Positions 6,393-35,527 of a stretch of DNA of 40,724 nt are shown here, piece by piece. This stretch comes from a virus (lineage: Duplodnaviria; Heunggongvirae; Uroviricota; Caudoviricetes), in the IMG/VR virus record IMGVR_UViG_2565956726_000012, positions 1-40,724 of that record. One strand, written 5' to 3'. How positions within the stretch are numbered: the first letter of the stretch is position 1; each line of letters begins with the position of its first letter. The position numbers were made by a program, and so were the translations under genes. Under the pieces are notes generated by a model, which was not told the origin of the DNA, ran no database searches, and saw only the letters and a list, made by a program, of their open reading frames with translations.

Positions 6393-7103
6393 ATGGCTAA
6401 TGCTCAAACTGCCATCTTCAAATTTGAATCTGTTAACCCTATCCGTTCCATCATTATCGATGGCCAACCATGGTTTGTAGCCCAAGACGTTTGTAGTGCG
6501 CTGCGCATCCAAAACGTCACCCAAGCACTTGAAAAACTGGATGATGATGAAAGGTCTATGTTCAACATAGGGCATGAATATCGTGCAATTTTTGACAGCC
6601 GAGTAAAAGAGATCAACATCATCTCCGAGTCAGGCCTCTACACACTGATCCTCCGCTGCCGCGACGCAGTGACACCGGGCACTATCCCCTACCGCTTTCG
6701 TAAATGGGTTACAGGTGAGGTTCTTCCTCAGATCCGCCGCACCGGAAGTTACATTAAAAACTCGCTCCCGCAGGAAGAACGCATAAAGATGGTTGCCGAC
6801 CAGGTTGCAAACGCCACAGCATCAGCAGTGATGCAGGCAATGAAGATAGAGAACAAAACCTACAGCGCCCCGCTGAAGCCCGGCTACCGCAGCCTGATTC
6901 ATTCTCCGTCTGGTGTTCTCGGCCTGACGGAGAACTCATTGCTGATGAATCTGCTGAATCAGTTGCAGGACGACGGGCATGATGTATCGGGCGCGGCGGC
7001 GGAGCTGACCACCATGTTTTGCTACATCGTTGGTGTGAGCAAATGCCTGCGTGATATCCAGACGCACGCGGAGTACATCAACGACAAGGCAGGGTTCTTC
7101 TGA
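6393..7103 (+). CDS. ant: Antirepressor, Bro-N N-terminal domain plus ANT-like C-terminal domain
   Basis: Bro-N-like N-terminus (FKFESVNPIRSIIIDGQPWFVAQDVCSALRI); GGAG RBS 9 nt before ATG 6393; the GTG at 6378 in the track is an unlikely start. Confidence 0.8.
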   Translation: MANAQTAIFKFESVNPIRSIIIDGQPWFVAQDVCSALRIQNVTQALEKLDDDERSMFNIGHEYRAIFDSRVKEINIISESGLYTLILRCRDAVTPGTIPYRFRKWVTGEVLPQIRRTGSYIKNSLPQEERIKMVADQVANATASAVMQAMKIENKTYSAPLKPGYRSLIHSPSGVLGLTENSLLMNLLNQLQDDGHDVSGAAAELTTMFCYIVGVSKCLRDIQTHAEYINDKAGFF

Positions 7104-31997: not shown

Positions 31998-32342
31998 TCA
32001 GAACTCTTCGATGATCCAGCCACCACCTGCTTTCTTTGGTTTAACCGTTACCCCGATGATTCGGAACGGATACTGATCTGCGGCGACTTTGGTTTTCACC
32101 CTGGCGTCGTCGGTCCAGAAACCTTTCACTTCGTGCAGTTCCATCTCGCCGGTGGCGAGCATCACAGCAAAATCGGGCGTATAGAACGTGTTGTCAGCTA
32201 ACCGCAGCTTGATACCCTCAAATCGATACCAGACGATTTCTCCTGCACGTTTACGCAGCTCAAGGTGCTGGCAATACGCAGATTCTGTTTTGTTCATCTG
32301 ACCTGTTTTGAGTCGACCAAGAGCCTGTATCTGTTTTCTCAT
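31998..32342 (-). CDS. DUF1064-type PD-(D/E)xK nuclease (possible resolvase-like)
   Basis: Motif YTPDF ...(x)... LHEVKG consistent with a PD-(D/E)xK catalytic core. Confidence 0.55.
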   Translation of the reverse strand: MRKQIQALGRLKTGQMNKTESAYCQHLELRKRAGEIVWYRFEGIKLRLADNTFYTPDFAVMLATGEMELHEVKGFWTDDARVKTKVAADQYPFRIIGVTVKPKKAGGGWIIEEF

Positions 32343-32345
32343 GAT

Positions 32346-32429
32346 TTACCTCTGAGGTAATTAAAAACCACATAAGACACGAAATCAATAGATTTTAGAA
32401 TATTTTATTACCTAACAGGTAATTGTCGA
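32346..32429 (-). promoter_or_regulatory. Minus-strand promoter (TCGACA-16-TAAAAT) with operator copies D (32346-32360) and E (32408-32422)
   Basis: Copy E lies in the spacer, copy D in the 5-prime UTR 4 bp before ATG 32342. Confidence 0.55.
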
Positions 32430-32459
32430 GACGTAAAAAAATGCGCTATCGCGCTGGTA

Positions 32460-33260
32460 TTACTTGATAAATCCTGCCGCCTTTCCCCGCCTGTATTCCT
32501 CCATCAGCCACTGCGCCGGTGTTATTCCCCCAAGGGTGGCGGCGTTAGGCATGCACCCGAAACTTCGCCCTGGTGGATGGTAAACGTCTCTCCCTGTGTC
32601 CGGAGGCGTACTCATGGGCTCTGGCTTTGCCTGTATGCTGATCACCGGATCGGGTATCTGCTGTCCGGAAGCCACCTTTTTCGCCCAATCATCGAGCAGC
32701 CTGCGTGCGTGTTTCTCAACCTCAATCTCGCTAAGCTGGCGCTGATACATTGCACGGCGGGTATCACATACGACCCAGTACATAACCGGATGTCGCCACG
32801 GGAATCTTTCGGGACCACCAGGATATAAACTTTTTTCCTTGCTGTACCGGTGAAACTCCGCCATCACATCGTCAATGGTGACGCCAAGAACCATCTTGCT
32901 GTCTTTGCACCACTTGATAAATTGCCCTGGAGACGGCCAGAACGGAGATTCACTGGCGCGGGCGTGGCGCATACCAGCAGAAACCTGTTCACGGGTTCGG
33001 ATCCCCCCTTCGGCAAACGCAGCAATCCACTGCTGTTTTGCAGCAACTTCCTGCTCTGGCGTCTTCAGGTTGGTTACCACTGCCGCCGGAAACAGTTGTT
33101 TCAGCTGTTTAAAAAGGGCATCAACAAGCCTCTCTGCTGACATGTTCACCACATTGTCATTGTTGACGTACTGATGCTCATAACCTGACATGCGAGAAAG
33201 GGCTTCTCCGTCACGGTTTTGTATCGCGGTAAAAACGTTGTTCACAAGAAATCCTCCCAT
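32460..33260 (-). CDS. Replication protein P-like helicase loader
   Basis: Region QQWIAAFAEGGIRTREQVSAGMRHARASESPFWPSPGQFIKWCK aligns with lambda P as recalled. Confidence 0.75.
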   Translation of the reverse strand: MGGFLVNNVFTAIQNRDGEALSRMSGYEHQYVNNDNVVNMSAERLVDALFKQLKQLFPAAVVTNLKTPEQEVAAKQQWIAAFAEGGIRTREQVSAGMRHARASESPFWPSPGQFIKWCKDSKMVLGVTIDDVMAEFHRYSKEKSLYPGGPERFPWRHPVMYWVVCDTRRAMYQRQLSEIEVEKHARRLLDDWAKKVASGQQIPDPVISIQAKPEPMSTPPDTGRDVYHPPGRSFGCMPNAATLGGITPAQWLMEEYRRGKAAGFIK

Positions 33261-34057
33261 GCTTCAGGGCTGTTCCAGTGCGGAACGTTGTTATCAGGTA
33301 ATGTTGATTGCTTCTGTCTGCTAATCTGCAGCCGCCTTGCCAGCTTCTGCTCCCACTGTGCCTGATGGTATGCCTTACCCTCAGCCATCCAGTAAATTCT
33401 GAACTCTGCAAGTTCCTGTGCCGTTGGCAGACTGTCCAGGTAGATTCCCTGCAATGAGCTTTTCCGAAGAAAGTCATCTGATGGCTGCCATTGTTCATGC
33501 ATGACAAATTTACCTAATTGCCCTGGCCCACCAGGAGGAACAAAGTTATTCATCACGGCGTTGTTTGCGCCGGGGTCATGAGGAACAGAATCCCCGGTTT
33601 TTGTCCTGCTCTCCCTCTCTTGGTTAAATGACTGGTTATATGACTGGTTCTGGATCCCGTTTTTGGGATCATTCAACATCCCGTTTTTGGGATCATTCAA
33701 CATCCCGTTTTTGGGTATATTCCCGTTTTCGGTAACATTACCGTTTTCGGGTTCATTGCCCCCCTCCCGGTTGCCTTTAATGTTCCCGTTTTTGGTTATA
33801 TTAAGAGAGAAAACCCGCACTCTTTTTGTCGCTCCCTTTCTCTCTCCGGTATCTGAAATAAGCCCCATTTTCATGAGCGATATAAGCCCGGCCTGCACGG
33901 TTTTTTTATTCAGGCAAGTGTCTTTAACGAGGCGTTCTATGCTGGGGTAGCAGAGGTTATATTCATCGGCTCTGTCAGCCATCGAGAGCAGTATGAGCTT
34001 TAATGATGAGCTACCTGGATCTGTCTCCCAGGCCCAATCTGTTGCATGTCTGCTCAT
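33242..34057 (-). CDS. Replication initiator O-like protein containing the iteron origin
   Basis: N-terminal winged-helix-like region; central Asn/Gly-rich amino-acid repeats encoded by DNA iterons. Confidence 0.7.
   Translation of the reverse strand: MSRHATDWAWETDPGSSSLKLILLSMADRADEYNLCYPSIERLVKDTCLNKKTVQAGLISLMKMGLISDTGERKGATKRVRVFSLNITKNGNIKGNREGGNEPENGNVTENGNIPKNGMLNDPKNGMLNDPKNGIQNQSYNQSFNQERESRTKTGDSVPHDPGANNAVMNNFVPPGGPGQLGKFVMHEQWQPSDDFLRKSSLQGIYLDSLPTAQELAEFRIYWMAEGKAYHQAQWEQKLARRLQISRQKQSTLPDNNVPHWNSPEAWEDFL
33653..33800. repeat. Replication origin iterons (about 6 copies of TCCCGTTTTTGGGAT-like repeat)
   Basis: Two exact 24-bp tandem units CATCCCGTTTTTGGGATCATTCAA plus degenerate copies at 18-24 bp period, inside the O-like gene. 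Confidence 0.75.
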
Positions 34058-34072
34058 GATTAATCTCCGCTA

Positions 34073-34273
34073 TCAGCTTGAGTGTTGTGGGGAGGAATTA
34101 ATCATGATCTGCTTAATCTCTGCCCTGATGCGACGGTTTGATTCCATGGTGCACTCAACACAGTGTCCGTTGTAAACCCAGCGTTCACTGTCATGTCCGT
34201 GCTTACATGGTTTTCCGGTGTAGTAGCGTTTAAGTCCGCGCTTTGCGGCATCAATACGTGTAATGATTTCCAT
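34073..34273 (-). CDS. Small zinc-finger protein at the CII-equivalent position
   Basis: C-x-H-x-H...C-x2-C cluster; between Cro-like and O-like genes; start chosen at ATG 34273. Confidence 0.4.
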   Translation of the reverse strand: MEIITRIDAAKRGLKRYYTGKPCKHGHDSERWVYNGHCVECTMESNRRIRAEIKQIMINSSPQHSS

Positions 34274-34353
34274 GGTAAGCCCTGTTATTAGTATTGGGAT
34301 TACGGTCATTTTGTGCTGACACAAAAAAAAGATCAACCAGATTTGGTTATTTA

Positions 34354-34368
34354 TTACCTTTGAGGTAC
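34354..34368. promoter_or_regulatory. Operator copy F (TTACCTTTGAGGTAC)
   Basis: One mismatch in the right half-site; between tR1-like terminator and the CII-position gene. Confidence 0.45.
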
Positions 34369-34375
34369 GAATAGA

Positions 34376-34401
34376 TATGAAAAGACCGCCGGGTGGCGGT
34401 C
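34376..34401 (-). terminator. tR1-like terminator after the Cro-like gene
   Basis: Stem GACCGCC/GGCGGTC with 4-nt loop, short U-tract on minus strand. Confidence 0.45.
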
Positions 34402-34423
34402 TACAGAGGGTTGTAGCTGGATA

Positions 34424-34654
34424 TCATGAGTAGAAGAAGTATGCCAGTTCTGCTTTTGAGCGCAGCCATTGTCTTGTTTTACAGGCTTTAAAAAGCCCAT
34501 TCATCAATACTTTACCTGGCATTTTGCGCTTACCTGTTAAGTGAGTCTGGATATAGTGACTCGTCGTTCCGGCTTCCTGTGCGAAGGCTTCACGCTCATC
34601 CGGAGTAAGTGCAAGCCAGTGCTTTTTGAAATCGAAATGTCCGTTATCGCTCAT
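34424..34654 (-). CDS. Cro-like HTH regulator
   Basis: 76 aa; HTH-like LTPDEREAFAQEAGTTSHYIQTHLTG; divergent from repressor across the operator cluster. Confidence 0.55.
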   Translation of the reverse strand: MSDNGHFDFKKHWLALTPDEREAFAQEAGTTSHYIQTHLTGKRKMPGKVLMNGLFKACKTRQWLRSKAELAYFFYS

Positions 34655-34666
34655 AGCTATTGCCTG

Positions 34667-34690
34667 ATATTTATTTCAGATAATAAATAT
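34667..34690. repeat. AT-rich 24-bp palindrome ATATTTATT-TCAGAT-AATAAATAT at the Cro-side promoter
   Basis: 9-bp arms, exact reverse complements. Confidence 0.7.
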
Positions 34691-34753
34691 TCACCCATAA
34701 GGTAACAAAAATCAAGGATAGTTACCTATGAGGTGCATTTACCTGTTGGGTAA
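34691..34753. promoter_or_regulatory. Immunity-region operator cluster: three adjacent copies (34691-34705 imperfect, 34722-34736, 34739-34753)
   Basis: TCACCCATAAGGTAA, TTACCTATGAGGTGC, TTACCTGTTGGGTAA between divergent cro-like and repressor genes. Confidence 0.65.
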
Positions 34754-34808
34754 TATTGCTTTAAATTGAATCATCTACTGATTCATATATGAGGCGATTT
34801 TCCAGAAA

Positions 34809-35393
34809 ATGAAAAGTATCCAGGACGTCCGCAGGCAAAATCTCAACGACTTGATCGACCGTGAATTCAATGGTGTTCAGACGCGGATGGCAGAAAAACT
34901 TGGAACTCAGGCAAATCTGGTAAACCGCTGGGCTCTTGGCAAGAAGGTTATCGGCGACCAGGTTGCGCGAAAAATTGAAGCTGCCGCCAATAAACCCCGT
35001 AACTGGCTTGATATCGATCGCTCGCTTTCTCAGGAAGGTTTTCAGCCTGTCGGCCCAAGCGACATTGGTCAGCTGGCGGCTCACAACCTGGAACGCTGGA
35101 TGAGCGAAAGCCGCGACCTTTCAACGCAGGGAAAACTTCACCGCGCATCCGGCGTCGCCCAGGTGACAATCAGCCGCCTGTTAAACAATGAGGTCAGCGT
35201 TTCCATTTCCACCCTGGAGAATGTTGCATCCGCATTCGGGCGTCACGGATATGAACTACTGATTCACCCGCACGACCCTGCGACTATCAACTATGACCGC
35301 TCACGCTACGCATTGTTACCCGAAACCGAGAAAGCAAAGATCGAAAGTTACATTGAATTTGTCATCAACCAGAACGAAAAAAGCAAACAATAA
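34809..35393 (+). CDS. Prophage repressor with two tandem XRE-type HTH domains, no S24 peptidase domain
   Basis: Two HTH motifs (QTRMAEKLGTQANLVNRWALGKK and QGKLHRASGVAQVTISRLLNNE); no Ala-Gly/Ser-Lys autocleavage module; divergent from cro-like gene. Confidence 0.75.
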   Translation: MKSIQDVRRQNLNDLIDREFNGVQTRMAEKLGTQANLVNRWALGKKVIGDQVARKIEAAANKPRNWLDIDRSLSQEGFQPVGPSDIGQLAAHNLERWMSESRDLSTQGKLHRASGVAQVTISRLLNNEVSVSISTLENVASAFGRHGYELLIHPHDPATINYDRSRYALLPETEKAKIESYIEFVINQNEKSKQ

Positions 35394-35415
35394 AACTATA
35401 GTTTTCAGTAAGTAA

Positions 35416-35437
35416 GCCGCCTCATGGCGGCTTTTTT
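35416..35437 (+). terminator. Rho-independent terminator after repressor gene
   Basis: Stem GCCGCC/GGCGGC, loop TCAT, 6 T. Confidence 0.75.
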
Positions 35438-35450
35438 ATTGCCAGATAGA

Positions 35451-35465
35451 TTACCTTACGGGTAA
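35451..35465. promoter_or_regulatory. Operator copy H1 (TTACCTTACGGGTAA)
   Basis: Perfect half-sites, 20 bp upstream of the early-left -35. Confidence 0.55.
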
Positions 35466-35484
35466 TTTTTTTAACTCATATCTA

Positions 35485-35527
35485 TTGACACCAAACCAAA
35501 TAAGCATAATTATTACCCCAACGGTAA
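35485..35527 (+). promoter_or_regulatory. Early-left promoter (TTGACA -35, AT-rich -10) with operator copy H2 (TTACCCCAACGGTAA)
   Basis: Consensus TTGACA at 35485-35490; operator at 35513-35527 abutting the -10 region. Confidence 0.6.

Follow-up and report, generated by a model that had tools for sequence, protein, structure and literature searches.

A candidate iteron-type replication origin inside the initiator gene of a phiV10-like temperate phage

We analyzed a stretch of 40,724 nucleotides (IMG/VR record IMGVR_UViG_2565956726_000012; hereafter the window), which represents a phiV10/TL-2011b-like (Uetakevirus) Escherichia coli phage or prophage, and in it a cluster of short repeats embedded in the gene for the replication initiator. 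The cluster consists of six dyad-symmetric sites, or iterons, at positions 33654-33798, adjoined by a second conserved element of 12-mer repeats at 33615-33653. The conservation and the genomic setting of these elements make it likely that together they constitute the vegetative replication origin of a phiV10-like temperate phage, situated inside the gene of its own initiator. By its sequence, the window initiator belongs to a class of HTH_36-type phage initiators, in which the N-terminal domain is followed by at least three CCnAAAAnnGG-type sites and then by a CRGAAYC/12-mer element. The comparison reported here defines this class as a widespread one, and provides a concrete, testable origin candidate for the phiV10/epsilon15-like phages, of which phiV10 itself serves as a reporter phage for E. 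coli O157:H7. The general understanding of phage replication is unchanged by these findings, and it is the 12-mer element, present throughout the family, that forms their most novel loose end.

Six iterons within the initiator coding sequence

The initiator gene (33242-34057, minus strand) encodes a protein of 271 aa with an N-terminal HTH_36 domain, a linker encoded by the iterons, and a DnaT-like C-terminal domain. The six ATCCCAAAAACGGGAT-like sites occupy nt 260-404 of the gene, between the HTH_36 (aa 18-67) and DnaT (aa 184-252) parts. All of them lie on the coding strand, with successive spacings of 45, 18, 18, 24 and 24 nt, and they share the form (A/T)nCC(A/G)AAAACGG(G/T)A. In the direction of the gene, iteron 1 (TAACCAAAAACGGGAA, 33783-33798; 16.4 bits with the matrix of relatives described below) lies 45 nt upstream of iteron 2 (AACCCGAAAACGGTAA, 33738-33753; 15.8 bits), which is followed by iteron 3 (TTACCGAAAACGGGAA, 33720-33735; 15.3 bits) and iteron 4 (TACCCAAAAACGGGAT, 33702-33717; 19.3 bits). 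Iterons 5 and 6 both read ATCCCAAAAACGGGAT and score 21.8 bits each, the former (33678-33693) lying within an exact 24-bp unit and the latter (33654-33669) adjoining the 12-mer element. Viewed on the plus strand, these are copies of TCCCGTTTTTGGGA that start at 33655, 33679, 33703, 33721, 33739 and 33784, with 0, 0, 1, 2, 3 and 2 mismatches respectively.

A preliminary description of this DNA had reported repeats in 33653-33800, including two exact 24-bp tandem units, that lie inside a coding sequence and give rise to repeated Asn/Gly-rich motifs in the protein. Each of these points was borne out. The repeats were recovered, as six copies, by three independent tools; Tandem Repeats Finder detected, at 33654-33715, a 24-bp unit present in 2.6 exact copies (100% identity), as well as a decayed 18-bp array at 33703-33757. 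All six sites share one frame of the minus-strand ORF, where CCC AAA AAC GGG encodes P-K-N-G, so that the array as a whole yields the peptide ...NGNIKGN...ENGNVTENGNIPKNGMLNDPKNGMLNDPKNGIQN.

For comparison, relatives were gathered by a tblastn search of phage records and by pattern matching across a genome set in which each species is represented once. Their N-domains are 40-87% identical to that of the window, and the statistics given below use the 64 loci that passed an alignment filter. A 16-position weight matrix, built from the relatives alone with the window and its 87%-identical closest relative left out, recovers exactly the six sites at 15.3-21.8 bits, and nothing above 12.0 bits in the rest of the 40.7-kb window on either strand. 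Base-shuffled windows, in which the single-base composition was kept, produce isolated matches of up to 19 bits, and at most 4 matches of at least 8 bits per 200 bp, compared to the 6 observed. The six-site array is thus excluded as a product of chance.

The three iterons closest to the 12-mer element each have a GATC (Dam) site, at 33653, 33667 and 33691, that overlaps the right arm (GGGATC), and the sequence GGATCC at 33652-33657 forms the junction of iterons and 12-mers. Given this overlap, methylation or SeqA could act on the site; a GATC at that position is missing in many relatives.

Conservation of the array as a DNA site

Arrays of 3-11 copies occur at the same gene position in the 64 distant relatives, and the hosts of relatives include Vibrio, Acinetobacter, Pseudoalteromonas, Marinomonas, Providencia, Edwardsiella, Arsenophonus, Desulfovibrionaceae, Sphingomonadales and others. 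The 12-mer that recurs most often within the gene is CCCAAAAACGG-like at 73 of 85 loci, with at least three copies at about nt 260-540, just past the N-domain. This N-domain is the sole protein part common to all 64 array-bearing loci, and the array accompanies it in phages of the genera Uetakevirus, Gofduovirus and Obolenskvirus. In the relatives, spacings of 17, 22 and 25 nt place the copies in more than one reading frame per array at 54 of the 64 loci, and the three frames hold 183, 87 and 66 copies across the set; an extreme case is locus L106, where 11 copies are distributed over frames 1,0,1,0,2,0,1,0,2,0,0. As the copies of so many loci are read in multiple frames, it is the DNA, rather than the peptide, that is conserved.

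Among 246 distinct copies, CC (positions 7-8) and GG (positions 15-16) are nearly invariant around an A-rich spacer of 6 nt. The outer arms vary and yet remain complementary, the types encountered being ATCCC..GGGAT (as in the window), GTCCC..GGGAC, GTACC..GGTAC, CACCC..GGGTG and ACCCCC..GGGGGT. Complementarity at the arm pair (4,19) holds for 131 of the 246 copies against 79 ± 6.6 after column shuffling, with GC, CG, AT and TA pairs all occurring, and the pairs (5,18) and (9,14) are enriched too; as the column shuffle ignores shared ancestry, these pair numbers overstate the significance. The actual evidence for symmetry is therefore the existence of several distinct compensated arm types. 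Symmetric co-variation of this kind is as would be expected of a site bound by a dimer.

At a finer evolutionary scale, 81 relatives with near-identical N-domains contain 4-9 sites when a strict pattern is used, and the architecture of the window is the mode (44/81). Copy number changes in this set by whole 18- or 24-bp units. This may be likened to the difference between lambda and the Stx phages, which have 4 and 6 iterons respectively, with 13 extra residues in O (PMC7466680). In the protein database, variants of 279, 287 and 311 aa correspond to the 271 aa of the window protein plus DPKNGMLN units, and the longest of these implies 11 sites; overall, lengths range between 271 and 311 aa and for the most part differ by steps of 8 aa, with the 291 and 292 aa variants duplicating other parts of the array.

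A strongly diverged site is seen in a GC-rich Desulfovibrionaceae MAG (L139), in which five copies of the repeat CCCCCGCCGGAAACG, spaced by 18-22 nt and read in three frames, lie at gene nt 268-364; here the array and its position are retained.

A second conserved element of 12-mer repeats

Directly past the last iteron, the coding strand of 33615-33653 reads CCAGAACCAGTCATAT AACCAGTCATTT AACCAAGAGAG, a series of 12-mers that takes the form of a AACCAGTCAT(A/T)T repeat in the window; in Tandem Repeats Finder, 33621-33649 comes out as 2.4 copies at a period of 12 bp (AACCAGTCATAT/AACCAGTCATTT). The stretch has a GC content of 37%, as against 48% for the gene, and among 40-bp duplex windows it ranks as the third least stable in the gene and reaches the 92nd percentile over the window as a whole. 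These properties mark it as a candidate unwinding region. The same trend is apparent throughout the family: in GC profiles anchored at the end of the last site, the 64 loci show a drop to 11-12 points under the gene mean (SE 1.2) at 10-50 nt past that site, which is the deepest dip within ±330 nt.

Beyond base composition, a comparison of the window element with those of relatives (L004, L005 and L088-L167) revealed a specific sequence. At 54 of 64 loci, C-R-G-A-A-Y-C is present directly past the last site and is followed by 2-3 GAAYCnnYCA 12-mers that recur about every 12 nt, and often then by an A-run. The C-R-G-A-A-Y-C motif is invariant in all 48 distinct sequences, in 8 of which the element is read in a different frame, and the 12-mer element is retained across at least 12 types of C-terminal domain. 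DnaA is known to read the DnaA-trios with sequence specificity, and plasmid Rep proteins likewise read the 13-mers of their unwinding elements. One may tentatively propose, at somewhat long odds, that the 12-mer element is a sequence-specific second origin element that is read by the N-terminal module or by a host factor, perhaps as single-stranded DNA; alternatively, it may be an extra protein site. Were the proposal true, a single portable "origin cassette", composed of the N-domain, the iterons and the 12-mers, would be shared by prophages of Gammaproteobacteria, Sphingomonadales, Desulfovibrionaceae and others. In the lambda-type phage origins, the AT-rich region is held to act simply via its low stability (PMC7466680).

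Comparison with the origin of lambda

The annotated ori of lambda (L007, 535-619) contains four iterons of ATCCCTCAAAACGAGGGA-like sequence that are followed by a very A+T-rich tract. Lambda and the window have in common dyad-symmetric repeats on the coding strand with TCCC...GGGA arms around an A-tract, located between the DNA-binding and the loader-interacting parts of the initiator; the array spans 32-50% of the gene in the window and 39-48% in lambda. Both also have a less stable stretch after the array, though a modest one in the window, a P-type loader gene as the next gene, and a cro-position gene and a divergent repressor upstream. The window site (ATCCCAAAAACGGGAT), however, measures 14-16 bp with a CC-N6-GG core, whereas that of lambda measures 18-19 bp and has the form TCCCTC-N5-GAGGGA. 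The window has six copies at spacings of 18, 24 and 45 nt, and its AT-rich tract is much weaker than that of lambda and is made of 12-mer repeats. The family matrix scores the lambda iterons at no more than 2.2 bits. Hence, the resemblance to lambda iterons claimed in the preliminary description is valid for the arms and the A-tract and fails for arm length and spacing. Judging from these differences, the window iterons represent a specificity class other than that of lambda, and the sites of the two are predicted not to be interchangeable.

The description of the gene as "O-like" calls for a similar qualification. The N-domain of the window protein is an HTH_36 domain, while that of lambda O is Phage_rep_O (PF04492, 5.7e-36); at E-values up to 0.01 the window protein shows no Phage_rep_O match, and only HTH_36 and DnaT are detected. 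The C-domain is DnaT-like in the window and of O's own P-interacting type in lambda. BLASTP finds no significant alignment between the window initiator and lambda O, which is to be counted with the unfavorable points gathered further below, as is the outcome of hhalign, where a 5-sequence N-domain alignment compared with the lambda O N-domain reached a probability of 9%, too low for homology to be claimed. The two N-domains nevertheless meet in the same profiles: phrog_678 is matched by both (window residues 1-85 on profile positions 59-134; lambda residues 1-172 on positions 4-216), and phrog_345 is likewise matched by both in overlapping regions. The designation "O-like" accordingly seems fair with regard to function and remote homology, but not as a statement of family membership.

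A natural hybrid with lambda O

The N-domain, iterons and 12-mers precede 15 types of C-terminal region that are unlinked by BLAST, among which Pfam recognizes just DnaT and Phg_2220_C. A particularly informative combination is found in the "O" protein of the Edwardsiella phage GF-2. Like the window, its gene encodes the N-domain (50% identity) and contains ATCCCAAAATTGGGAT sites (three at 24 nt spacing and others) and 12-mers. Unlike that of the window, its C-terminal half is the C-domain of lambda O (62% identity to lambda O aa 156-299), and the P protein of GF-2 is 55% identical to lambda P. The junction lies directly past the 12-mers, which is the point where the AT-rich region, and with it the ori, of lambda ends. 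It follows that the array fills the slot of the lambda ori in a natural hybrid, and GF-2 can be taken to mark the module boundaries. Lambdoid O proteins are known to be modular, with an origin-specific N-terminal part and a P-specific C-terminal part, an arrangement that is mirrored by GF-2.

The array as a probable replication origin and alternative explanations

The lambda-like origin layout that had been proposed earlier for this DNA is supported by the position of the array between the two parts of the initiator, by the less stable stretch beside it, by the P-like loader gene downstream and by the conservation at the DNA level in the 64 relatives. By analogy with lambda, dimers of the HTH_36 domain would bind the six dyad-symmetric sites and assemble into an O-some-like complex, and this would strain and open the adjoining, less stable 12-mer region. 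The DnaT-like C-domain would then bring in the lambda-P-like loader together with the host DnaB, and would possibly hold the opened single strand; its role may thus be loader contact, capture of single-stranded DNA, or both. With the helicase loaded, theta replication would start, and transcription of the cro-initiator-P operon would cross the site.

Several observations weigh against an origin at this place. The AT-rich element is weak in the window: in duplex stability it falls short of the local mean by no more than about 1.3 SD, the intergenic promoter regions close by are less stable than 33615-33653, and its 37% GC compares with a visibly more A+T-rich tract in lambda. Among the six copies, two are exact duplicates of 24 bp, so that part of the array reflects recent slippage and not long selection. 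In 32400-35500 there is no match to the DnaA box TTATCCACA with up to 1 mismatch, and the IHF consensus is absent near the array. The minimum of the cumulative GC skew, at about 33-35 kb, coincides with the switch of transcription direction at the immunity region; it is therefore not an independent support, and was not used as evidence.

The alternative that survives best, although we consider it improbable, is that the sites bind the initiator as a regulatory sink, for autoregulation, titration, copy control of the handcuffing type or a transcription roadblock, with initiation taking place elsewhere in the genome. Plasmid iterons are known to have such control roles besides initiation, and the weakness of the AT-rich flank in the window is also in keeping with a sink. 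More AT-rich stretches are indeed available in the immunity region at 34666-34790, but these correspond to the divergent promoter region of the immunity genes, and neither Tandem Repeats Finder nor the matrix scan detected a second repeat cluster across the window. Furthermore, a mere sink does not account for the GC dip and the 12-mer element right past the last iteron, which are kept in 54-64 relatives, or for the location of the array exactly at the lambda ori position in the GF-2 hybrid protein.

Less probable still is the explanation that the repeats are a feature of the peptide, namely a flexible linker rich in Asn, Gly, Pro and Lys that grows and shrinks by replication slippage, with no function for the DNA motif. 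The window taken by itself might give this impression, with its six copies in one frame encoding xPKNGxxN-like units, two of them exact duplicates, and with a copy number that is polymorphic in whole in-frame units; the segment also aligns poorly and varies in length among relatives, as a linker would. The occurrence of the same DNA motif in two or three frames per array, in 54 of 64 relatives, largely refutes it, and dyad symmetry and symmetric co-variation are meaningless for a peptide. Codon usage points the same way, as the rarest Pro and Gly codons are used inside the iterons: Pro is encoded by CCC in 4 of 4 cases in the window sites, versus 7% in the large genes of the phage, where it is the rarest Pro codon, and Gly by GGG, the rarest Gly codon, in 5 of 6 cases, versus 17% genome-wide. 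The motif moreover persists across hosts from Acinetobacter to Desulfovibrionaceae. With the origin as the preferred explanation, the array is a clean natural case of a coding sequence dictated by a predicted DNA-binding site, and not by the encoded protein.

That the array might be some other cis signal (a packaging site, a recombination hotspot, antisense terminators or a structured RNA) is the least credible proposal, its support being two weak hairpin-plus-T-run sites on the plus strand at 33664-33707, whereas the hairpins have just 6 pairs, 3 of them G-C, need the 24-bp spacing, itself unconserved in relatives, no Rfam family matched the array when 32400-35500 was scanned at E up to 1, and the array always travels with the initiator N-domain across different phage genera. 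The two hairpin sites, which are weak matches of the terminator scan, arise where adjacent 24-bp units form a GGGAT-loop-ATCCC structure followed by TTTTT, and are probably an incidental by-product of neighboring iteron halves. The matches of the promoter and terminator scan are no commoner than in shuffled sequences.

The initiator and its gene neighborhood

The domain composition of the initiator rests on Pfam matches to HTH_36 (aa 18-67, E=1.8e-10) and to DnaT (PF17948, aa 184-252, E=1.1e-15), and the protein as a whole matches phrog_1032, "replication initiation protein" (E=1.2e-108). The predicted iteron-binding part is the N-terminal winged-helix-type domain (aa 1-87; 33797-34057, minus strand), which forms the block that is kept across relatives. 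The DnaT-like C-domain (aa 184-252) is encoded at 33302-33508 on the minus strand, and aa 180-265 resemble solved DnaT C-domains (among them 4ou6 and 6aep, E about 1e-20). An AlphaFold2 model of the initiator from the single sequence was uninformative (mean pLDDT 37.9).

The start of the next gene, which encodes a lambda-P-like helicase loader (32460-33260, minus strand), overlaps the end of the initiator gene. Its product matches Phage_lambda_P (PF06992, E=1.5e-56) and phrog_109, "P-like helicase loader", and is 31% identical to lambda P (E=2e-35). The operon that runs through the array is headed by a gene for a regulator in the Cro position (34424-34654, minus strand; phrog_35, "transcriptional repressor"), whose counterpart in the annotated relative is PhiV10p41. 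The immunity region, which lies upstream of the replication operon, contains a divergent repressor gene (34809-35393, plus strand; HTH_3 in Pfam) with two HTH motifs, the phiV10 equivalent of which is annotated as a putative repressor. The resulting order of repressor, cro-like gene, small ORF, initiator and P is that of the lambda early-right layout. A gene of the DUF1064/phrog_190 "Holliday junction resolvase" type (31998-32342, minus strand) is located in the same early region, after the P gene and a terminator annotated in phiV10.

In public records, homologs of the initiator are labeled "primosomal protein I", "DnaT", "DnaT-like ssDNA-binding domain-containing protein", "helix-turn-helix domain-containing protein" or "pyocin large subunit"; among the records listed, the RefSeq record of phiV10 alone calls the gene a replication initiator. 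Of 5,426 complete E. coli genomes, 424 carry the gene, there labeled after its DnaT-like domain only. The C-terminal segment of roughly 70-85 residues is indeed homologous to the single-strand-binding domain of E. coli DnaT (primosomal protein I), with a match limited to aa 180-265 of the initiator over residues 85-170 of the 179-residue chain 9zbt_D. The N-terminal two thirds of the window protein are, in contrast, unrelated to DnaT, and the gene context and the PHROG family are those of a phage replication initiator. The name "primosomal protein I" hence describes one domain and not the whole protein, and this misleading gene name can be corrected.

Related origins and extrachromosomal records

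Iterons inside initiator genes are already known: lambda O, P22 gp18 and L gp18 each contain their own iterons within the coding region (PMC8022706). As in the window, the Salmonella phages P22 and L have an initiator gene in the O position that contains its own iteron type, followed by an AT-rich run. Six TGTCCAACGGA repeats are annotated as a putative rep_origin in the record of phage L, an assignment made, as here, from sequence alone. The iteron sequence differs from that of the window, and L gp18 is partnered with a DnaB-type helicase in place of a P-type loader. L gp18, a member of phrog_345, is not significantly similar to the window protein by BLASTP (best E = 0.93), and a blastn query composed of the phage L repeat and N spacers returned no matches. 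What appears to be new here is the iteron class and its assignment to phiV10-like phages. No origin is annotated in the phiV10 record examined, the match listings of the other phage hits show none, the Uetakevirus papers checked do not mention an origin or iterons, and a CC-N6-GG iteron class assigned to these phages was not found in the literature searched.

The iteron-bearing plasmid origins of the RK2, pPS10 and P1 type also resemble the window in their direct repeats, their winged-helix initiators and a neighboring unwinding element of 13-mer-like repeats. They differ in that the window origin would lie inside the initiator coding sequence and would acquire its helicase via a phage P-type loader. 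The absence of DnaA boxes from 32400-35500 is a further difference from this plasmid type.

Some related loci are found on extrachromosomal records. The circular 8,461-bp E. coli plasmid pZ1323HEC0067-2 (NZ_CP148379.1, L170) encodes a 35%-identical initiator with four matrix matches in its gene (iterons at 6628-6798), together with a short P gene, immunity genes, dicA-/dicC-like regulators, YdaT, rem and hokD, a content that is Qin/PPompW-like prophage in character. PLSDB assigns no plasmid replicon type to this record, which hints at a mini-replicon of the lambda-dv type; a further point on the unfavorable side is that the record derives from a single-cell assembly, and could represent an excised circle and not a stable replicon.

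The 138-kb record of phage BP9, classified as a Vequintavirus (L002, PP488543.1, 133437-137228), ends in an immunity and replication region of the phiV10 type that is shorter by one 24-bp unit; the region also occurs in the unannotated 115-kb record PP350014.1 (phage PH444). The presence of a temperate module in the record of a large lytic phage suggests a chimeric assembly or contamination.

Finally, two circular E. coli "plasmids" of 41,027 bp from duck isolates (NZ_CP079771.1, L171; and NZ_CP079768.1) are whole phiV10-like genomes, with an initiator of 99.3% protein identity. The one examined of these two circles, pHL15EC-2, has no PLSDB replicon type. Such circles could reflect an episomal state, or phage DNA that was replicating in the culture.

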